64,000 nt of DNA from Elsinoe ampelina (taxonomy: Eukaryota), in the NCBI GenBank assembly GCA_010093995.1, contig ML992513.1, positions 1 through 64,000 on the forward strand, given 5' to 3'. Below are positions 5,347-59,766 of the stretch, in pieces. The notes under the pieces were generated by a model, which did no database searches, had not been told where the DNA came from, and saw nothing but the letters and a program-made list of their open reading frames with translations. Each line of letters begins with the position of its first letter. Position 1 is the stretch's first letter. The translations under genes were made by a program, and so were the position numbers.

Positions 5347-7222
5347 ACGTCGTGCGTCCACAAGCGACGCGCGTCCACAAGCGACGCACATAAAAAGGCG
5401 TCAACGAGGTAAATTCTTCAATTGCTCTATTCAATCAGGCTAGTTCGTCTCCAGAATCAGACTTAATAGGCTCTGGCTCTTCCTCCTCCGTATCCTCCGG
5501 TATAGGCTCCGGCGTAAGTGACTTTTGATGCTTTTTTTGCTTCTTCTTCTTTGTCTCTTCTTCGGCCTTACGAAGGATATTAATCGTTTCTTGCTCGCTA
5601 AAGACGAACCGGCCTTCGATAGCGACGCGCTTACCACTTTTCTTACGCTTACGCGTCTCTAGAAGCTAGCGCTGTTGTTAAACCTCCCGTTGAAGTAGTA
5701 ATAAGGCCGCCGTCGACGATTCGAATTGTAACGTCATTTTTGAGATATATCGCTTAACCGGTGTTTCGACGTCGACAACAGCCATACGCGCGTTCAGACT
5801 ACAGTTGACCGTACGTAAACTTGCGCCGGATTGTGGCGACCCTAACCGCAAGACTTCCGAGTCGAATTGGCCGTTTTCCGTTATACTTTCCGTTAGAGTA
5901 ACTAGTCAATCACGTGATTCGTGTAGCAAATTTACAAGCACCGTAATAGGACTTATTAGATAGATTCCGGAATGTCTAAAACCAGCCTGAATATTGCTTG
6001 CGGTTAGAGCGCGTATTCTGGCGTTTATATAAGATTCGGTCTACTATACTCGGTGTATTCGGCCTAAATCGAGACGTATTAGATTGTCGATCTCCTTCGT
6101 AAGGGCTGTCTTTAACGGCGAAAAACAAGCAACGTCGAGGGGCTGAAGGATATACAACGCATGTGGTAGAAAGACAACTAGATCGATGTTATGCTCGAAA
6201 CAGAAGAAGGCAAAGGCGGCCGTAACGTGCGAGCTATGGCCGTCTAGAACGAGGAGGCGTTGACGGCCGTTAATGTCACGTATTTCTGGTTCGAAAATCG
6301 TCGTAAGCCACTCTAGGCCGTGTGCGTCGCTTGTCCAGCCTTTATTCGATGTTGAGAATCGCCATCCGGCTGGCCACGGATCTGGAATCTAGTTTGTTTG
6401 GAGGTTTTTAGCCTTGTATATTACAAGGGGGGGTAGCGTGTCTCCGGAGGCTCAAATACACTCCAGAATTGATATCTACTCCTGTCGGCCGACGACGCGT
6501 TTTCTAGCCTTCTTTCGACGACGGCTAGGATCTAAACTGACTACTACTTGCGTCGATTGAGTTAAACCGACGCTAGCGCCTACCTCGTCGAGGTTATAGA
6601 CGTCTAAAGGAGGGTAGTTATATTTTTTAAACAAGTCGGATAACGCATCGAAGAACGGCGCAATAGCCTCGTAAGTTCCAGCTTTAAACCGTAAGGACTC
6701 TAGTTGACGGGATTGACGCGTCTTGATCTCCGGATGACGTTTATATAGTCGCCGTAACCACGTCTTTCCGATAGGGTGTAATAGAGCAGAGGGAAGTTCG
6801 TTGTCCGATATACGTGCTCGGTGTTGAATTATCTCGATAACGAGCTCACGGATAAAGCAAGGCGTCGCAGGTGTTCCAAGGCTATCGAGCTGAAGGATAT
6901 AGCCTACGAGCGTTTGTTCTTCGGCCGGAGATAGTAACTGCTTCGGTAGATTACGTGTAGTACGTGATTGTCGGCCGTGAAGCCTATCTCGAAGCGTAGA
7001 AGGCGGAATCTGAAACGCGTCGGCAGCTTGTCGAATCGAGTTGTAAGTATTGTTCCGATAGCCTCGGAGAGCAGCTTCGATATCTGCTTCAGAATACATA
7101 TAAAACAGCTCGAAAAATGATGTTTGTCACGTAGGAAGGAAGAATAGTTACGAAGATGACACGTAAAAAAAAATGAGGTGTGCGCGACTTGTGGGCGTGC
7201 GCGACTCGTGGGCGCGCGACGT
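5347..7222 (-). mobile_element. Full-length Fot1/pogo-like element with mismatched TIRs (5' end subfamily D, 3' end subfamily B)
   Basis: TA-flanked ACGT termini. Left TIR ACGTCGTGCGTCCACAAGCGACGCGC..; right TIR (rc) ACGTCGCGCGCCCACGAGTCGCGCAC.. Confidence 0.9.
5435..7099 (-). pseudogene. Fot1/pogo DDE_1 transposase (HTH_psq, CENP-B HTH, DDE), 555 codons with RIP stops
   Basis: Open for 207 aa (MYSEADIEAAL..YNLDEVG), then TGG>TAG and CAA>TAA stops; motifs LLVLDGHSSH and ILQPLDVACFSPLK. Confidence 0.92.
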
Positions 7223-20700: not shown

Positions 20701-21600
20701 TTAATCTTAGAGTTATTCTTAACTTCTTCTTTAACCTTANNNNNNNNNNNNNNNNNNNNNNNNNNNNNNNNNNNNNNNNNNNNNNNNNNNNNNNNNNNNN
20801 NNNNNNNNNNNNNNNNNNNNNNNNNNNNNNNNNNNNNNNNNNNNNNNNNNNNNNNNNNNNNNNNNNNNNNNNNNNNNNNNNNNNNNNNNNNNNNNNNNNN
20901 NNNNNNNNNNNNNNNNNNNNNNNNNNNNNNNNNNNNNNNNNNNNNNNNNNNNNNNNNNNNNNNNNNNNNNNNNNNNNNNNNNNNNNNNNNNNNNNNNNNN
21001 NNNNNNNNNNNNNNNNNNNNNNNNNNNNNNNNNNNNNNNNNNNNNNNNNNNNNNNNNNNNNNNNNNNNNNNNNNNNNNNNNNNNNNNNNNNNNNNNNNNN
21101 NNNNNNNNNNNNNNNNNNNNNNNNNNNNNNNNNNNNNNNNNNNNNNNNNNNNNNNNNNNNNNNNNNNNNNNNNNNNNNNNNNNNNNNNNNNNNNNNNNNN
21201 NNNNNNNNNNNNNNNNNNNNNNNNNNNNNNNNNNNNNNNNNNNNNNNNNNNNNNNNNNNNNNNNNNNNNNNNNNNNNNNNNNNNNNNNNNNNNNNNNNNN
21301 NNNNNNNNNNNNNNNNNNNNNNNNNNNNNNNNNNNNNNNNNNNNNNNNNNNNNNNNNNNNNNNNNNNNNNNNNNNNNNNNNNNNNNNNNNNNNNNNNNNN
21401 NNNNNNNNNNNNNNNNNNNNNNNNNNNNNNNNNNNNNNNNNNNNNNNNNNNNNNNNNNNNNNNNATCTATAAGAATTACTTCTATTATAGTAAGAATTAC
21501 TTTCTCTTCCTTAGTTATTTCTTTAGTCTTAATTACTAGAGTATTAGTTATCTCTTTCTCTTTACTAAAGGTTTACTAATCTATAGGATTAGTAGATATT
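17750..21600 (-). pseudogene. hAT transposase (BED-type zinc finger, catalytic core, C-terminal dimerisation domain)
   Basis: De-RIPed CLRCG..HP..KHL (~19880-19960), QDVxTRWNSTYDM (~18900-18940), WWKEN..FPQLARIARDILAIPIASVGVERVFN (~18000-18125). Start and end approximate. Confidence 0.88.
20740..21464. other. Assembly gap (725 N)
   Basis: Run of N within the low-complexity N-terminal region of the hAT transposase. Confidence 1.
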
Positions 21601-49934: not shown

Positions 49935-51619
49935 AGACGAGGATCGTGCCACTGGCGTCGAGCCGGGGGCTCGATAACAGCAACATCATCCGTGGCTAAC
50001 AAGAGCTGAAGCTTCCCAAGCTTACAAGAGTCTTGGTGCTGTTGCTCAGAGCTCGATGCGAACCCCCCAGCATGGGGACAACAGAGACTGAGGGGGCGAC
50101 GAGAATCTCACGACTACTTGCCGTGGGTCTTGACGATTGTTCTCCAAAGCCAGCAGCAAGAACGTGGTCAATACCTCAGCACTTCGGCGCTCATAATTGC
50201 GTTGGTATGCACGGTTTCTCCGAGGAGAGATTGAGCTTTGTTCTCCACCGACGAATGCGAGCGCCCAAAATTGCAACTTCATGCACGAGCAAGCCAAGAG
50301 GCGACTACTGGATGGTTGCTCAGCATGCAAGCCAGCATTCCTGTTTGCGTACAGCATTTACCGTTTCGGTCGAGCTTGGGCCGATCTCATGCACGAGGTA
50401 GCTCTACGATTATTGCCTACTGCGTGCGGGACGTTGTGTGCGGCTGAGGGCGACGCGAGGAGGGCTTCCTGGGCCAGCCATAGCGGAAACTCTAGCGTGA
50501 CCACCTGCATAAGTAGCGTGGGCAAGCTGGAGCACGATCTTGGCGGGTGGGGGGCACTTTGCCGTCGATCAATCAAAGCCATTCTTGTTACTTGAGAATC
50601 TGGTCGCTCCGCTGCCTCCGCATCGAGTCACTGGATTGCCGCTCATGACCGGGGTATCGGGACGAGGAAGAGGTGGAGTCTCCACTGCTCTGCGGGTTAG
50701 CCCCCACACACACCGAGATGTGCCAAGACGAAAACGTTACTCCATGAGATGGACATCAGTCGCGTACTCAGCCTTTCTACTCCCAAACATATGATGAGAT
50801 TCCTGGGCCGTTGCTGCCGCCGGCTGGTGTCGGTGCCCTGTCTCGGACATCCTCATCATTGTCGCTCGTCAGGTGATGCTCTCTCCTTCTTGTGAGTAGC
50901 ATACGCTTATTCAGTCTTCATTGTTCTGTCCTGTTCGGAACTTTGGCAACATCCTAGACTTTGCTTTCCAGCATGTCTAGCGCACCGACGATGATGGTCC
51001 AGGCTCCTTGTGCCGCTATTTCCGTTCCCGCGAGATATGCAAGGCAAAAGTCCACTGCAGAAAGAAGACTTAGCCCGTCACCTGAGCACAAGTGGCTTGC
51101 GTCGTTCTGCTGCTTTACAGTTGTCTAATTGGGTCTGGCCTTACTGTCACGGTCAAGAATGTCCGGCGATCACAGTTCCTGGGGGGATTCGCAAAGTACT
51201 GCTCGTGACATCTGCTTGGGACCACACAGGACAAAGCAGCTGTTTCCTGGAGACTGGAGTTACATATGGTGCATGTCGAGACCAGGCTACATACTCGGTC
51301 CAGTTTTCCGCCGGGGTCCTGGCATGCCTGCAACTATGGACGTCCTGGACAGATCACTATCTCGGAGGGCCCATCAGGTGGGCGCTCCGTGGTCACCCGG
51401 CCATTCAGATACTAGCTCAAGCCATAGCTTTTTGTTATGCAGTGCCAGGAAGGCCAGAACACTGAAACGAGAAGCCACGCATGGAGCGAATTTCCCGACG
51501 CTGCAGCCATCTTGTGACCTCGCAAGCCTTCATTTCATGCGGCTTCGCTTAGGCAATCAATGGAGTGGTGTGCTGCCGCATGGAGGGTACGGCCTGCTCT
51601 TGATATGGTGTGCAAAGAG

Positions 51620-51628
51620 CATAAATAC
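51620..51628 (+). promoter_or_regulatory. TATA-like element (CATAAATAC) upstream of the secreted protein gene
   Basis: ~115 bp upstream of ATG 51736, followed by a CT-rich leader. Confidence 0.4.
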
Positions 51629-51735
51629 AGCTCGGATCTCCGCTGCGTAGACCTTTCTCTACATCAGACCTCCTCATCTATTCCTTTGGCATCCCAGCTC
51701 GACTACACTCTTCATCATCATCCTCCTTGGCTACT

Positions 51736-52548
51736 ATGGTGACCAAAGTCAACGTATCGTCCCTTGTGGTCGCTCTACTTCCGCTCGTTCATGCTACCGT
51801 GAACTTCAATAATGACTATCCAGGCTTTCAGGGCGTCGAGCCGAGGCAGGCCTTCAACATCATCCCTGGAGGGGGCAACCCCCTTCAGATTTGGGGCAAC
51901 ATGCTTGGTGCAGGCAATTATCCCGCCAGCGACTGGAATGATTGGCAGGCCTCAGCCAGATGCAACGTCCGTACCTCAAGCGGAGGCTCCGCCGCAGCCA
52001 CCGGCGAGGTCTGTACCACTGCTGCCATAGTCCAATCCATCTCCACCGCCGTACGTCAAGCCTCTTCTCAGACCGACAACAACGCCGCCCAAATTCGCTT
52101 CATCGGTCCCATAAACAACTTCTGGAACTACTACCGTGAGGACCGCGGCCAAGGTCCATCATGCCCGACATGTCCCGGCCCAAATGCCGACCAGACCTGT
52201 TCCGCCTGGCAGCGCGACTGGCTGTTCAACAGTGGGTACAGCTTCTCGTGGCCCAACAAGCAAATCAAGGTGACATGCAAGAAGAGTTGCGCAGCCACGA
52301 ACATCGACCAGACCAATCTTGAGAACATCCTGGCTCTTCTTCCGAGGAGGGTTCAACTCGCCGGCGCCATGGGGGCCAACTTCTTCTTCCGGAGGGATTA
52401 TTCGAATGAAGTGGTCGGTCGTTGCAGGCTCACGATTCTGGGCGATGCGACCTATCTCGGTGGACAGGACTGGCGTAACACTGGCAATTCATGCCCCGAC
52501 TTGGTCTACGGTGGCGAGACGCCTGGGAACTGCTTTCATTATGGCTAG
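51736..52548 (+). CDS. Secreted cysteine-rich protein (270 aa, 10 Cys); effector/toxin candidate
   Basis: Signal-peptide-like MVTKVNVSSLVVALLPLVHA; intronless ORF with strong C-ending codon bias; no family recognised. Confidence 0.85.
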   Translation: MVTKVNVSSLVVALLPLVHATVNFNNDYPGFQGVEPRQAFNIIPGGGNPLQIWGNMLGAGNYPASDWNDWQASARCNVRTSSGGSAAATGEVCTTAAIVQSISTAVRQASSQTDNNAAQIRFIGPINNFWNYYREDRGQGPSCPTCPGPNADQTCSAWQRDWLFNSGYSFSWPNKQIKVTCKKSCAATNIDQTNLENILALLPRRVQLAGAMGANFFFRRDYSNEVVGRCRLTILGDATYLGGQDWRNTGNSCPDLVYGGETPGNCFHYG

Positions 52549-53053: not shown

Positions 53054-54832
53054 CTAGGGAATGTTGAAATAAGTCGCCATCTCGTCCTCCAACGGTATCA
53101 GCACCTCCTGCTCCACCGTCCGGGCAAAATCCTGGTCTTTCAGATCCGCTCCCGGCTCCATGAGACATTTCAGGCAGAACTTGATGGCGTGGCTAAAGCC
53201 CTTCGAGACTTGATCATGATGTTCTTGCCAGTATTTCTGGGCATTGAGACATCTCGTCATGATCGACAGCTGATCCTGGGGTCCGCTGGCAGAGGTAGTA
53301 GTGTTTGGGTCGTCGAGGGAGCGACGTTCGTAGATCTCAAGCAGAATAACGCCGAGAATAGCGATGCGAAAGTTGTCGTTGAGGTTACTCGCGGGTCGAA
53401 GACCTACTTGCGTAGAGCTGTGCTCATGGCTGAGGTAGGGGTGCTTGATGTCGACCTGTTCTGTATTGAGAGCAGAACCTTGCTTGGCCCTCAAGAATAG
53501 CAAGTCAGCTTTGCTGAGTGTCTCGCTCAGCCATGAAGTATGGCTCAGCTGGAGTAGCGTGGCAGTCAATGTAATGGCCAAGTGATATCTGTCCTGAAAT
53601 CCGAGTTCGTTTGGCCGGCTTTGTAGAATGTCCTCTAGGCTCACATTCTGCTTTGTGTATTGTATGGCACGCTGGGCGTTGTAGGCCCCTCGCAGCCGCC
53701 CTTGATCATCCACGCAGAACCCAACGCAAGGGTGGCAGGCGCTCTGTAGCTGTGAGCAAATATCATCAACTATTTGTAGTTGTGCGACGTTGTGGTATGG
53801 TAGAGTGTTCGATAGCGGAGACATCGAAGGTACCGCGGTGATTTTGACCTTTACTTTTGAACTGGACTGCGTCAATATTGATTTCCTTTTATCTGTAGCT
53901 TCCGAAACTCACTTTTGTGCAGGCAATTGATCGAGCTCTGGTGGTAATCGCACCTCGACATCGAGCCACTTATCAGCACTGAGGTTCGCGGCATGGCGGA
54001 TTGACATGCCAAAACAGCAAGGATCACAATTGGTCGATTGGAAAGTCGCCCCTCTGCCTCGAGGCTGCTTTCTGGGTCCTTTTGTAGCAAGACGTTGCTC
54101 GAGTAGGAGCCCAGTAGCGTGACTGTTATGGAGTGTACAATAGTTATCGGACAAAACACTGTACAGCTTCTCGGCGTTCGCGCGGATGATATCAGCCCCC
54201 ATCATAAGCCGAGACTTGCTAGGTGTACGATACTCAGTTGTTGCTTCTACGAGCTTGTCGGCTTTGCTCTGAATCTTGTCAAGCATGTCGATGTCTCTCT
54301 CTAGTCTTTGCGTAGCTTGCTGGATCCTGTCTTTGGACATGGTGAACTTCAAGCGGTTGGAAAACACAAAATCAACCTGGGCATTATTTGCTCGCTTTGT
54401 AGTCTGCCGTTCGATGATGGCTTTCAGACCGACTTTGGTCAGGTCGTCCGCACCAGAGAGACCATCGAGTTTCGCTGCGATCTCGATCATTTGCTGCTGT
54501 ATGTTTACCATTGTGCTCCTGTATTGCGGGTATGCGTTCCCGAGACGTTCACGAAGGCCATCTTCAATTCCTTGATCAGACCAGTGACGGCAGCTTGCAT
54601 CGTGTAGCATTTCGTCGAGCTGCCCGTTCGAGGTCACCGGCAACAGGAGCAGCCTGATCGTGTATTCAAAGGAAGCATATTGTGCATGGAGAGATACGAT
54701 AGCATTTGCGAGATGTTGTCCAAAATGCCGGAATGTCCTGCGTTTGTCATTGATGGCTTCGTAGTGCTCCAGGGCCGAGATGATTAGTGGTATGGCGCCA
54801 AACACGACTCCTACGACCTCCAGTCCAGACAT
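53054..54832 (-). CDS. HeLo-like N-terminal helical domain plus degenerate kinase-like C-terminal domain; intron 53912-53862
   Basis: MSGLEVVGVVFGAIPLIISALEHY N-terminal helix; C-terminal RYHLAITL..LLQL..SWL, HPYL, LGVILLEI, AIKFCL, VLIPLE. The intron joins the two track ORFs in frame. Confidence 0.75.
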
Positions 54833-55095
54833 CGCAACAGCAGCCCCCACGGAACAGAAAAGACATGTAGAAGAGAGAATCACCAGAGCTGAGGTCGCAC
54901 AAGTTGAAGACCGGAGGTCCTCGAGCTGATTTGTCAGCCGCATCCAATCAGGCGCTGTGGCGTCTTGTCCTGCATATTCGCGCTGGAGACCTGATCGAAC
55001 TGTCGGCTCGATCAGCTTATTATAAGACTCCTACAGTCCGACGACAGTTGACTATAACTGACACTGATGTCCCGTCGACCTGGCCTTTCGTGACG

Positions 55096-58000
55096 ATGGC
55101 CGCGAGTATTGCTCAGAAGGCGAAAGCTTGCCTCATTGCCCTCAACGATGTGTCGGCTGCATTGCAGAGCGATGTCGGCTCAGCCGTTCACATAGCTGAT
55201 TGCCTCAGTCAAGACGACCTCGTATGGGAGACCGAGAGATTCAAGATATGGTGCGGTAACCTGGGAGCCCTTCAAGCTGGCCCGAGCTCGTTGGACGCCA
55301 GACTTCGCGATTCTGTCGTCACCACATCCAGCATCTTGTCACTACTGGCTCGACTGCTACAGACTTTATCGGATTGCTTCGATATTGTGACGGGGGTACG
55401 ACTTCCATTCGACCAAGATGTTGATGACGATGAGTCGGATGGGGAGACATCCAGCACGGATGAGGGCGAGGCGCCGGCAGCGTCTGAACAGCCGAAAGAG
55501 CTCGCTCTTCACGCACAGTCCATCAAGCAGATCATCAGCGATCTGTACAAGATCTCATTCAGGATCAGAAATTCATCACAAAGAGCGGCGAATAATACAA
55601 GGCATCTTTCGTACCAAGAGCCGGACCATGAGACCAATATCGACCTGTTGACCGCCTTCTCGTTCTTTGACAGACAGCATGTGTTGGAATTCCTCGCACA
55701 GCTCCGTCGGAATACGTCTCAATCTATCCCTTCAAGCAAGTTGAAAGGCATGGCTGAGCCTCTGGGCGCGACTCTCATCGGTTACGACGACTTTTTCGTA
55801 GACAGGCTCGCTGCTACATTGGGCCGAAGGAGGCGGCTGCTTCGTTACTGGCGGCGACATGCTCGGAAGCTCGCAGGACCAGAGCCGGTCACTCGACGGG
55901 AAGCAAAGCCTGAAGTCAGGATCATTCCTGACCAATCCAAGCATGGCGAGCAGACACAAGCGCCAGTACCACAGCTTGCTTCACGATCGATGCACGAAGC
56001 AAGCGTTGCACGCAAAACGATCTTCTCCGGTACTGAAGCAACCAAATTCGTCGAAGATCTGGACGCCCCGGTGGAAGCTCAGTCCGTCTTGTCTTATGCC
56101 TCATCAGCATTTGCGGTAGATGATGATGGCGTGCTGTTACCGAAGCCCCCGAAAACGGATCTGCGTGCTACAGAGTTCCTTTGCCCGTATTGTGGAATCA
56201 CATGCCCGATTCGACAGGCCAAAGGGAAGGCTTGGAAAGCGCACGTAATACAAGATATCCAGCCATACGTATGCACCTACAAGGACTGCAAAACAGGCGA
56301 CCAAATCTACGGCAGTTCCAAGGCTTGGCTCGAGCACGAGCGGCTGACACATAGGCGAGTCTGGCAATGTTTCGAACATCGAGAGCCTCAGTACACTTCG
56401 GCTTTGGGCTTGACGAAGCACCTGCAAAAGAACCACGAGCAACTATCGGCAGAACAGGCGCAAACGCTTGTCAACATGTCAGAATCTACGCTGCGAGATG
56501 AGAGGACTACTTGCCCCTTTTGTCTCCAAGATATCGGGGCTTCCGCCAATGCGAGCAAGCACATCGCTCGCCACATGCTAGCCATAGCCACGTTCTCGGT
56601 GCCTCCGGACATTACTCATGCTGAAGAAGTCGAAGAGGGAGAGGGGCTGTCCGGACTGGCCCAGCAACTCTCTGACCGGTCGTCGGAAGTATCCACCCTG
56701 GATCCTTCGCTGGAAGATTTCCAAATTCTGTGGATGTGCATGTCAAGGCAAGTCTACGACGCCGCCATCGCGCTTCTCGATCACAAGTTTCTCAGAGATG
56801 AAATCGAACATCAAGATCATGGTTGCAGGTGGACGTTCGGTCTGGTGAGCGGCCGATACGTGCTTGTAGCCGGTCCACTACTGCTGCTGAATGGCGACGA
56901 CTGGCGAGACGCCCTCGACTTCCGCGACATGGCGAGCCGTTTGACGAATCTCACCGTTATACTTTCTCTGGGTACCGGCAGTGGTGTCCCGAACAGCGAA
57001 TCTGGTGTTCGATTAGGTGATGTGGTAGTTTCCTTCCCTACGAGGAGATCGAGCGGTATCACGCGTTACGACGTGGCAGACGATAATCCATTCCCCAGCG
57101 CTCCCATGTCACTACAACGCGCTGTCGAAAGCATTCGTCTCTCGGAGTCTACAGTCCCATCATTCTTCCATACTTATGCGGACCATGTGGCGCCTGCAGA
57201 GGAGAAATGGCGACGGCCGCACTCCAAAACGGATACTTCATATGATGAGACATCTCCTATAGTCTATCGAAGTAGATCCAACATCGAAGTGCATCATGGT
57301 CTCATCGGAAGTGCGGTGGCATTGCTAGAAGACCATGGAGAGCGAGACAGACTGCATATGGATCAAGCCATCATCTGTTTCGAAACAGGCCTTGCATCCC
57401 TTGATGCCTCTTGGCCTTTGCTTGCTATAATGGGAATATCCGACTACTGTGATCCTCGTGACACGAGAATATGGCAGCCCTATGCGGCTCTCGCTGCGGC
57501 AGCGTATGCAAAGCTTCTGGTTCAGCACCTTGACGTGGAGCATAGCGAACCAAGGAGCACTCTTGGCACTGCTGCGCAAGCGGTAATGCCGGCCGGTGCC
57601 CGTAACGATGATGCCCTTGGAAACATGTCTGAATATGAAAGCTACGGTCAAGTATCTAGGAACTTATTGGCTAGCTTCAACAAGCAGCAAGCTACGCAGA
57701 TCACCTCAATGGCAAGTCGGGGGTCATCGCTGCCTGTAGCCTCTCCGGAAGATGGCGGTGACGACGAACTACGTGCCTGTTATCGCTCATTCCTCAGAAC
57801 CCCATATGAGCACCGTAAGAACCAACATACTGATTGGTCTGGCATTGGAGGCGAGTGGCTTTTGAAACACGAACCATTCGTTGAATGGGTCGAAGGAACG
57901 GCATCGAGGATGCTACTTGCTACTCGAGGAGCAGGGACAGGAAAATCAACACTTGCGCGCTTCCTCGTTGACGAAGAGCTTCCACGACTCGCCCCAGATA

Positions 58001-59766
58001 GCGCGATCTGCTACTACTTTTTCAGTTATAGAGACCAGCACAACTCTGTCAAATTTGTGCTTAGCGCACTGTTGCATCAGCTGTTTCGACATTCACAGGC
58101 GCTCTGCGAATGCGCTCTCCCGGCTTGGAAAATTTCAGCTCCGTCGCCCATCGAAGACCCCAAAGTCTTGTGGAGCATCTTTTCCGCCGTGCTTAAACGT
58201 CCGGATTGTCCGCCAATACTCTGTGTTCTGGACGGCATAGACGAGTGCGGTACAGCTGAGTCTGCAAACCCGCTAGACGGACTGTTCGATTTCCTCGGTC
58301 ATTTGGACAGCATGAAGGATGACGAAAGCACAAGGTGCAACATTCTACTGCTATGCCGCCCAGAGCCCCGTATCTTGATTCGTTTCAACGCCCTAGCCGG
58401 AGAATATCATTTGGCATGGTCAGATCGCCCTGAGGTAAAAGATCAGGACATGTATAGCCTAGCTGGTAAGGTGTCCAAGCTCTGCAATCCAATATCGATC
58501 CCGATCCAAGAACAGATCCATCTTGCGGAAGATTTGGCAACTTCTCCAGATTTTCAGCGGGCTAAGGTCTGGTTGGACTTCGCCATCAACAAATTGCCTC
58601 CAATGCAAGAGGCTCCTGAAGGACTGTCCGAAAGTCAATGTCGATTCTTTGACGAGGCCTTCCGATGCAGCACTATGAACAAGGCATCTCAAGACGCTTT
58701 CGAAAGGATCCATATCATGCTGGAGATTCTGTTGGCCGCCGGAGGTTCCCTCTCGTTAGGCGATCTTTACGTTGCAATGGAAATCTGCATAGAGCCCAAG
58801 GCGTCGAGTCTGCATGATTGCAAACCCGACGGTCTACTGCGGCCCCTGGAGTCATGTGAGCCTTTCGTCCTTGAAGACGAAGAACAAATAGTAAGGCTGT
58901 ACCATCCCATGATGCAAGCATACCTCGCCGACCCACACCTCAAGAATTCCGGGCTATCAAGATGGTACATCGACTTCTCAGACGTCTACAAGACCGGTGT
59001 CTTCCTGCTCATCAAATTCATGCTCTTCTATGAAGAGCAACACAAACTACAGTATCACTTTGGCACAGTTTACCGCGCGATTGCCAACAGGCTCCAGGAG
59101 CAAAAACATGTGCCCACTTCCGCATTGGCTCTTCACAACCTGTACGAAAGACTTTTTCCAAAGCTGGAATGGATCCGGCGACATGGTTGGACAGCCGATG
59201 AAATCCTGGCCGGCGTTCCACGTAGCCACTCGTTGCACGTAGCCCAGCTGCAAATAGCACTAGAAATGCAACGCAATCCCGACTTCTTCGAAGGATGCTG
59301 GGACGCTTTGGTGGTCAAGTTGACGGCCACTGTTGAGCTCGAACGTGGAATGTCGGAACCGGAACGGGGGAGACTCGTAATGGACGACCTTGATGCAGAT
59401 GTGACGGTCTCAGAAGACCAAGGAGCTGTCAATGCGATAGCCGGCATCGACCAACGATCTCGAATTCCAGATCCCAACGACCTTCAATACCCCATCAGTA
59501 AACTTTCACTGGAGGAGGATGTCACAGGACCTCGGCCTTCGAGATACAATCGCTCGAGTCGGCAGATGTCTCGACATCTTCTCCAAGATCAGGGAGATTC
59601 TTCAAGTGTCTCTTCGCGTAGGGTAATAGGCGTGCAGCCGGACTTCTCGGGGGAGGATCACCTGTTCGAGCGACAAAATGCATACAGCAACGATTGGGAC
59701 GTTGGACCGGAAGTCCCGGGCATCAACAAATTATTTCACCGAACGCATAGGAGAATGTCACATTAA
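55096..59766 (+). CDS. NLR-like STAND protein: helical N-domain, C2H2 zinc fingers, PNP_UDP-like domain, NACHT; no C-terminal repeats
   Basis: ERFKIWCGNLGA..SLDARL; CPYC..H, CTYKDC..HERLTH, CPFC..HIARH; GTGSGVP..VRLGDVVV..GISDYCD..WQPYAA; Walker A GAGTGKST, Walker B VLDGIDEC. Intronless. Confidence 0.85.
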   Translation: MAASIAQKAKACLIALNDVSAALQSDVGSAVHIADCLSQDDLVWETERFKIWCGNLGALQAGPSSLDARLRDSVVTTSSILSLLARLLQTLSDCFDIVTGVRLPFDQDVDDDESDGETSSTDEGEAPAASEQPKELALHAQSIKQIISDLYKISFRIRNSSQRAANNTRHLSYQEPDHETNIDLLTAFSFFDRQHVLEFLAQLRRNTSQSIPSSKLKGMAEPLGATLIGYDDFFVDRLAATLGRRRRLLRYWRRHARKLAGPEPVTRREAKPEVRIIPDQSKHGEQTQAPVPQLASRSMHEASVARKTIFSGTEATKFVEDLDAPVEAQSVLSYASSAFAVDDDGVLLPKPPKTDLRATEFLCPYCGITCPIRQAKGKAWKAHVIQDIQPYVCTYKDCKTGDQIYGSSKAWLEHERLTHRRVWQCFEHREPQYTSALGLTKHLQKNHEQLSAEQAQTLVNMSESTLRDERTTCPFCLQDIGASANASKHIARHMLAIATFSVPPDITHAEEVEEGEGLSGLAQQLSDRSSEVSTLDPSLEDFQILWMCMSRQVYDAAIALLDHKFLRDEIEHQDHGCRWTFGLVSGRYVLVAGPLLLLNGDDWRDALDFRDMASRLTNLTVILSLGTGSGVPNSESGVRLGDVVVSFPTRRSSGITRYDVADDNPFPSAPMSLQRAVESIRLSESTVPSFFHTYADHVAPAEEKWRRPHSKTDTSYDETSPIVYRSRSNIEVHHGLIGSAVALLEDHGERDRLHMDQAIICFETGLASLDASWPLLAIMGISDYCDPRDTRIWQPYAALAAAAYAKLLVQHLDVEHSEPRSTLGTAAQAVMPAGARNDDALGNMSEYESYGQVSRNLLASFNKQQATQITSMASRGSSLPVASPEDGGDDELRACYRSFLRTPYEHRKNQHTDWSGIGGEWLLKHEPFVEWVEGTASRMLLATRGAGTGKSTLARFLVDEELPRLAPDSAICYYFFSYRDQHNSVKFVLSALLHQLFRHSQALCECALPAWKISAPSPIEDPKVLWSIFSAVLKRPDCPPILCVLDGIDECGTAESANPLDGLFDFLGHLDSMKDDESTRCNILLLCRPEPRILIRFNALAGEYHLAWSDRPEVKDQDMYSLAGKVSKLCNPISIPIQEQIHLAEDLATSPDFQRAKVWLDFAINKLPPMQEAPEGLSESQCRFFDEAFRCSTMNKASQDAFERIHIMLEILLAAGGSLSLGDLYVAMEICIEPKASSLHDCKPDGLLRPLESCEPFVLEDEEQIVRLYHPMMQAYLADPHLKNSGLSRWYIDFSDVYKTGVFLLIKFMLFYEEQHKLQYHFGTVYRAIANRLQEQKHVPTSALALHNLYERLFPKLEWIRRHGWTADEILAGVPRSHSLHVAQLQIALEMQRNPDFFEGCWDALVVKLTATVELERGMSEPERGRLVMDDLDADVTVSEDQGAVNAIAGIDQRSRIPDPNDLQYPISKLSLEEDVTGPRPSRYNRSSRQMSRHLLQDQGDSSSVSSRRVIGVQPDFSGEDHLFERQNAYSNDWDVGPEVPGINKLFHRTHRRMSH

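Follow-up and report, generated by a model that had tools for sequence, protein, structure and literature searches.

The closest described systems come from plants and fungi. In wheat, R3NLR/R3AK (Rwt3.6.8) is reported to combine an NLR sensor and an MLKL executor encoded head-to-head (10.64898/2026.08.07.743466,.743458), death being executed by the four-helix bundle of the MLKL protein (10.64898/2026.08.07.743466). In fungi, NWD2/HET-S and PNT1/HELLP consist of adjacent genes for a receptor and a HeLo-family effector (PMC12881547, PMC9815663). Here we describe a gene pair of the fungus Elsinoe ampelina, located in a 64,000-nucleotide stretch of its 28.3-Mb assembly (the window, G000:C13:1-64000). 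The left gene product combines a hydrophobic helix with a HeLo-like helical domain and a DUF7580 domain, which together give the layout of MLKL. The divergently oriented partner gene encodes a constant module of four-helix bundle, conserved disordered linker, and zinc fingers, followed by a tail. Our analysis points to an undescribed fungal alarm-and-suicide system that appears to be built like the paired immune receptors of plants.

Among the described systems, wheat R3NLR/R3AK would be the closest analogue. Both pairs are head-to-head genes for a sensor and a helical-bundle-plus-kinase executor, roles that are proposed in the fungus, and are inherited as a unit. As reported, the wheat sensor is a coiled-coil (CC), nucleotide-binding, leucine-rich-repeat protein without an integrated domain, and the catalytic site of R3AK is mutable, whereas the proposed fungal sensor is a bundle-linker-zinc-finger protein, mostly without an NTPase and with swapped tails, and the proposed fungal executor has a kinase fold devoid of catalytic motifs. 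Plant paired NLRs with integrated decoys, such as RRS1/RPS4, likewise join a head-to-head sensor and executor, and they are described as carrying host-protein domains fused to the sensor. RGA5/RGA4 and Pik-1/Pik-2 are further pairs of this kind. Neither fungal protein, in contrast, is a canonical NLR. Because its sensor scaffold is not an NLR, the fungal pair belongs to neither the wheat-type nor the decoy-type plant pairs. According to a 2025 survey, few two-NLR clusters of Sordariales (13 of 225) are head-to-head NLR-NLR pairs, and a CHK2-like kinase may serve as a decoy in NLRs (PMC12258605). That survey, as its scope is described, was limited to NLR-NLR pairs and could not see pairs of a sensor and a pseudokinase. 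It concluded that Sordariales did not converge on the plant-style layout of head-to-head receptors; the present family shows that layout, its proposed sensor not being an NLR and its proposed executor resembling MLKL.

The amyloid-coupled fungal pairs differ from ours in both proteins. The effectors of NWD2/HET-S and PNT1/HELLP end in an amyloid motif, whereas the left protein ends in a 350-residue pseudokinase and its partner begins with a folded 500-residue module. An earlier note on this DNA had seen no amyloid motif; a crude pattern and composition scan of the left C-terminus and the partner N-terminus found none either, and both termini are modelled as folded helices. According to a 2025 review, certain HELL domains are combined with kinase or pseudokinase domains, no partner gene being named there, and proteases linked to gasdermins can carry a fused domain predicted to be kinase-like (PMC12881547). 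The executor architecture itself, a HeLo-like domain with a pseudokinase, is therefore probably not new. Podospora het-V also comprises two adjacent genes, one with an MLKL/HeLo-like domain. We rejected it as the same system, as het-Va is described as a SET methyltransferase and het-Vb as having TUDOR domains, and neither architecture fits (PMC9262711). PMC8851545, PMC9815663, PMC10197012, and PMC9262711 describe other systems. We found no description of the pair, nor mention of "DUF7580", in the literature covered, a body that leaves out most subscription papers and supplements with possible HELL-kinase neighbourhood tables.

The start codons of the two genes, at 54832 on the reverse strand (left gene) and 55096 on the forward strand (partner), lie 263 bp apart, exactly as the earlier note had read them. 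On the sole basis of this spacing, we infer that the divergent intergenic region (54833..55095) is a shared promoter serving both genes. At 45 head-to-head loci the gaps between the profile matches of the two genes measured 290-855 bp (median 450). The left gene, on the reverse strand, consists of exon 1 (53913..54832), a 51-bp intron (53862..53912, GTGAGT...CAG), and exon 2 (53054..53861, stop codon included), which carries the DUF7580 domain (PF24476). Seventeen candidate introns open the frame; the one with the GTGAGT donor yields 575 residues, and the database model P0004 is identical to this predicted protein. Exactly these 51 bases are skipped in contigs of three of four sequencing runs, from two studies, whose RNA nature is presumed; no listed run is on record as RNA. 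The partner gene is a single open reading frame on the forward strand (55096..59766) of 1556 codons without a stop. One contig covers it gap-free, coverage is patchy in three runs, and only a 205-residue piece (residues 299-503) is found among its database matches.

Our results show that the two genes travel together. The genome contains five PF24476 matches and five partner-module matches, and all five face each other head-to-head: the window pair, C13:115502+/114191-, C2:2628558+/2626593-, C1:1941403-/1943365+, and C8:1154180+/1151851-. These counts are lower bounds, and two further partner queries revealed no additional module in this genome. A weak match at G000:C2:1139819 was discarded as a partner; it is a zinc-finger protein without the bundle, with no DUF7580 match within 9.9 kb. 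Scanning metagenomes with the partner alignment yielded 253 confirmed relatives, of which the best 80 were studied as loci. Left-family profiles were built from left-protein relatives only, and at least 600 bp upstream of the partner was required, so that 26 loci were dropped as too short. A left-family gene was present upstream of the partner in 54 of 54 informative loci, corresponding to 40/40 clusters at 90% identity and 29/29 at 70%. Orientation was head-to-head in 48 and tandem in six, the latter forming one clade (L055, L062, L072, L073, L091, and L093), two members of which have a kinase in or after the tail. Downstream of the partner, a left-family match occurred in only 2 of 39 loci, one a second complete pair and the other a fusion. 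A lack of linkage between homologues, which the earlier note would have taken as refutation, is thus not observed in the genome or in the metagenomes. At L074:44-6066, a left gene sits between two partner genes. Eight species appear in both the left and the partner database lists, and in five of them the locus tags neighbour each other on contigs of equal length (E. fawcettii, Polytolypa hystricis, Teloschistes peruensis, Fusarium decemcellulare, and, two tags apart, Trizodia sp.). The matches lie on different contigs in Lophium, Mytilinidion, and Bogoriella, each of which may hold several pairs.

The pair also diverges in concert. Pairwise identities of the left pseudokinase and the partner zinc fingers correlated with a Spearman coefficient of 0.61 (41 pairs, 796 comparisons; the test takes no account of species history), the best of 2000 permutations reaching 0.27, and 0.57 was retained among the 771 comparisons below 60%. 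The left tree and the partner tree, the latter a quick one, have several clades in common. Within the genome, the closest left genes are those of the window and C13:115502+/114191- (46%) and of C1 and C8 (42%), and their partners are also closest (47% and 29%); the pairs thus duplicated as units. In the sister pair (G000:C13:114982-116446, L016:983-2447), the left gene is without ~106 residues, equivalent to positions 124-229 of the window's left protein, that are present in the E. batatas and E. fawcettii relatives, which could be a real deletion or an assembly error. The E. fawcettii pair is closer to this sister copy (71%) than to the window pair. A further NACHT gene, whose N-terminal exon is helical, lies convergent to the sister left gene (G000:C13:116574-120059, L016:2575-6060, reverse strand).

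The tail of the partner is exchangeable. The five partners in the genome carry PNP-NACHT twice, NACHT-ankyrin, a CorA-like membrane domain (weak, E 5.8e-05), and one tail without a family. We scanned 63 of 82 listed downstream open reading frames at 40 metagenome loci. The frame from fingers to tail was stop-free in all 21 loci with a family in the finger-continuing open reading frame, and these hold 12 domain classes: TPR (5), ankyrin (5), Macro (2), and one each of CBM21, HET, Myb-like (weak), RhoGEF, DUF3384, SH3, kinase, NACHT-TPR, and DUF7580. Database partners, spread over several ascomycete classes, add FHA+kinase, Forkhead, RhoGAP, PAH+Macro, WD40, and DUF6590. Neighbours in the tree differ in their tail, with CBM21 at L024, HET-NB-ARC-TPR at L025, and PNP-NACHT in the window. 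Most partners contain no oligomerising NTPase, and most also contain no kinase. The DUF3384 tail matches a fungal TSC2 N-terminal structure (E 1.3e-97), and the exon after the SH3 tail matches Sla1 SHD1 (E 1.3e-20) and, at 58%, a single locus in the E. ampelina genome. Searches of the E. ampelina genome with the TSC2-like and PH/PB1 tails retrieved no match, and at L051 no GT-AG intron, by a simple rule, joins RhoGEF to PH/CNH. A clade of Macro-tailed partners (P0194-P0222, L026-L028, L038-L040, and L069) recurs in many Dothideomycetes. Macro domains bind ADP-ribose, and these partners may therefore sense ADP-ribosylation. Six database partners (P0006, P0007, P0010, P0020, P0028, and P0201) bear the name "Checkpoint kinase 2" with no kinase family found in them; the label was apparently carried over from a member with a kinase tail, for instance P0012.

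The left protein is exchanged as well, in its effector part. The left genes at C1 and C8 encode DUF7580 with peptidase S8, and an S8-like match also occurs in the L064 left gene. At L049:3-4000, an extra DUF7580-S8 gene stands behind a standard pair, convergent with an RCD-1-like gasdermin gene (E 5.3e-05). This branch resembles the HET-Q2-type protease of het-Q2/het-Q1 (PMC8851545), from which the window differs in that its left gene has no protease; the main text of PMC8851545 contains neither "kinase" nor "zinc". One gasdermin homologue was found in the genome, at G000:C2:2729727-2730446 on the reverse strand, 39% identical to that of L049. It lies ~100 kb away from the pair on C2, and the 9.9 kb around it contain no DUF7580 match. 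At L076:138-2654, in a partner near-identical to that of L074, one open reading frame fuses partner zinc fingers to a DUF7580 domain at the end of the tail. Effectors thus differ from one left protein to another and sensor-type domains from one partner to another, and the constant parts are the pseudokinase and the partner module. The earlier note, whose reading is partly supported overall, missed this main point: PNP-NACHT is merely one of many interchangeable tails, and the left effector part is swapped too, being HeLo-like or a subtilisin.

We consider it rather probable that the pair is a two-gene intracellular surveillance and cell-death module, in which a bait-tailed sensor controls a pseudokinase-gated executor with no amyloid link. 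The left protein would be the executor in this model; like that of MLKL, its pseudokinase would keep the HeLo-like domain with the hydrophobic first helix inactive. The right protein would be the sensor, its constant front module docking on the pseudokinase and its exchangeable tail serving as the detector. Such a tail could be a set of repeats, the core of an NLR, or a copy, acting as bait, of a core protein of the cell that an invader attacks (a mycovirus, a bacterium, or a rival fungus). Binding, modification, or cleavage of the tail would make the module switch or release the pseudokinase, whereupon the executor would oligomerise and breach the membrane enclosing that hyphal compartment. 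A second branch would have this pseudokinase gate a subtilisin, which could cut a gasdermin. At the window locus, the detector would be the decayed PNP-NACHT receptor. The gene models, splicing, linkage, co-divergence, exchange of tails and effectors, and predicted folds are what the data show, and binding, the direction of control (activation or release), toxicity, and the trigger are what we infer.

Most of what is known about fungal immunity concerns self/non-self incompatibility. DUF7580 and PF26082, two Pfam families without known function, gain a testable joint role from this model. HeLo-type death could in this way be reached without amyloid, and a single regulatory domain would connect the necroptosis-like branch with the gasdermin branch. 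Through the swapped tails, the guard/decoy hypothesis becomes open to direct testing in fungi. A wider reading, possible and put forward tentatively, is that the family constitutes a widespread, NLR-independent class of fungal immune receptors. Its bundle-linker-zinc-finger scaffold would act as a universal adaptor for grafted baits (TSC2, Sla1, Rho GEFs/GAPs, Chk2-like kinase, Macro, and Forkhead) or NLR parts, signalling via DUF7580 pseudokinases to a necroptosis-like pore former or a gasdermin-cutting protease. If true, the tail catalogue would be a list of fungal proteins attacked by largely unknown enemies.

The tight linkage and co-divergence would fit the cognate pairs of a selfish toxin-antidote or allorecognition system equally well. 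The left protein would then be a constitutive poison and the partner module its antidote; killing would follow fusion or strike spores devoid of the cognate partner, and the tails would be passengers or of secondary importance. PF26082, found in partner relatives, is listed among the most copy-number-variable families in the Neurospora crassa pangenome (PMC13412767), which suits such a system as well as the surveillance and cell-death module, and two-gene het loci are described as common (PMC12881547). However, this explanation leaves unaccounted for the repeats, NLR cores, and signalling-protein pieces that occur as in-frame tails, as well as the protease branch beside a gasdermin. In addition, no terminal or flanking repeats hinting at a transposon surround the window pair, and the signature of repeat-induced point mutation (RIP) is absent from both of its genes. 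We regard it as unlikely, although it is the alternative that survives best.

The N-terminal glycine/hydrophobic helix of the left protein (residues 1-24; 54761..54832, reverse strand), which the earlier note had picked out, is a candidate membrane-inserting helix; 95% or more of the aligned rows conserve each of G3, E5, G8, L11, and P15, and its 19-residue Kyte-Doolittle maximum is 2.16 (family median 1.56). It opens an all-helical domain (residues 1-201; 54230..54832, reverse strand) according to the AlphaFold2 model. That this domain may be of HeLo type, as had been proposed, is suggested by its nearest named ESM Atlas cluster, PF14479 HeLo (0.94, 176/256 features), but not by Pfam: none of HeLo, Helo_like_N, SesA, and Goodbye matched at E ≤ 0.1 in 30 of 30 left-family members, or at E ≤ 1 in residues 1-205 of the window protein. 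The remainder (residues ~218-575; 53057..54181, reverse strand, spanning the intron; conserved C232, H238, and C342) is the pseudokinase. Exon 2 matches PF24476 with E 3.7e-18 (66.7 bits versus a cut-off of 27), and all 30 left-family relatives scanned pass this cut-off. The earlier note had seen here a region like a kinase C-lobe without catalytic motifs. The DUF7580 region is modelled as a kinase fold with both lobes, so the description was too narrow as to extent, and the absence of motifs holds: where the family aligns to a kinase, there is no conserved HRD Asp or DFG. HRD and DFG are catalytic motifs of kinases. Foldseek returned no row at E ≤ 0.001 for either the left or the partner model; the 50 rows listed for the left model were filled by the kinase domain, and HET-S was not among them. 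Compared with PDB sequences, the left profile retrieved just a plant kinase (E 0.7). Mammalian MLKL/RIPK3 differs in that no sequence similarity was shown and, in the model, the domain arrangement appears different (root-mean-square deviation 17.9 to 4btf). Because most partners have no kinase, activation of the phosphorylation type cannot be general.

The partner begins with a four-helix bundle (residues 3-163; 55102..55584, forward strand), which is HeLo/CC-like and has no hydrophobic first helix. Its best structural match is Rx-CC, NRG1.1 CC-R and MLKL being also listed, and Pfam HeLo matches 3 of 15 chosen partner relatives; the ESM Atlas gave no usable match for residues 1-260. These matches, together with an amphipathic first helix (median moment 0.38), could mean that the roles are reversed: the partner bundle would kill, as a plant CC domain does, and the protein with the pseudokinase would be an adaptor or bait. 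RKS1/ZED1, the pseudokinase adaptors or baits of ZAR1, provide the model. Several observations speak against such a reversal, which we judge quite unlikely. The strongly hydrophobic, conserved first helix sits on the left protein (mean hydrophobicity 0.73 versus 0.21), and values above 1.6 occur in 38 of 88 left and in 0 of 82 partner sequences. Moreover, the swapping of effector-type domains on the left and sensor-type domains on the right, and the lack of an oligomerising NTPase in most partners, fit poorly with it. Profile-profile comparison of the two N-terminal domains detected no homology, and a like-with-like HeLo interaction is therefore unsupported by sequence. A complex predicted without alignments from the left protein and partner residues 1-420, the last zinc fingers excluded, gave a median of 0.30 against a mark of 0.34.

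The bundle is followed by a helical hairpin with a terminal Arg-rich helix (residues 184-259; 55645..55872), in which R237, R245, R246, Y251, and H255 are near-invariant, and by a conserved linker (55939..56151), predicted to be disordered (predicted local distance difference test <50 at residues 282-338), all on the forward strand. The linker is a candidate docking motif, with S311 conserved in 78/90 rows, T313 in 85/90, S333 in 85/90, Y334 in 73/90, P349 in 89/90, and P352 in 90/90. The zinc-finger array (56173..56598, forward strand) has four conserved Cys/His sets, with PF26082 matched in relatives. Nucleic acid could be bound by the zinc fingers and the Arg-rich helix, the weak Foldseek rows for the partner are C2H2 proteins (E > 1), and Myb-like, Forkhead, or La domains are among the tails. 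It is conceivable, if improbable, that the pair serves non-lethal signalling, with a membrane-anchored pseudokinase tethering a zinc-finger regulator whose release would let it act on DNA, RNA, or proteins. In contrast, the HeLo-like features, the HET, NACHT, and NB-ARC tails, and the S8-gasdermin neighbours are typical of fungal cell-death systems and favour the surveillance and cell-death module.

For the window partner, the earlier note had named C2H2, PNP, and NACHT domains; the zinc fingers and NACHT stand, and the PNP domain proved to be decayed. This PNP_UDP-like region (56716..57570, forward strand) has no Pfam match but can be aligned with five PNP domains of this genome. It is without the conserved first Glu and the EME motif, which are found in 5/5 and 4/5 of these other domains, respectively, and the paralogue of the window partner passes the PNP_UDP_1 cut-off. 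The NACHT-type NTPase (NPHP3_N, E 7.9e-26; 57850..58359, forward strand) has a P-loop GKS and a Walker B motif, with the first P-loop Gly replaced by Arg; the NACHT and winged-helix matches are weak, the latter to HTH_TANC1 (E 0.0059; 58687..58938, forward strand). We matched no ANK, WD40, or TPR repeats at E ≤ 1 and no kinase domain in the window partner. That the family works as proposed and the tail of the window copy is a decaying remnant without a sensing role would agree with the lost PNP motifs, the altered P-loop, the missing repeats, and the shortened sister left gene (C13:110-116 kb), but is highly improbable given a reading frame intact across 1556 codons, a spliced left gene, a left protein 86% identical in E. 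batatas, and an equally decayed PNP-NACHT tail that is kept in the paralogue and in E. fawcettii.

The pair was said to interrupt a run of housekeeping genes. A TRAPPC13 gene further left and a DENN gene to the right agree with this, but the immediate left neighbour (51736-52548, forward strand), convergent with the left gene, encodes a secreted-looking protein of 270 residues with a signal-peptide-like start and several cysteines, matching no Pfam family. One contig with the spliced left gene extends to 52135, inside this neighbour, and run X4 shows four differences at 51540-51698, three of them also present in X5. Elsewhere in the window, positions 1-28000 are AT-rich with RIP-type dinucleotide indices, an N-gap lies near 20740-21470, and a transposase-like remnant, its family judged by eye, is found at 6476-7126.

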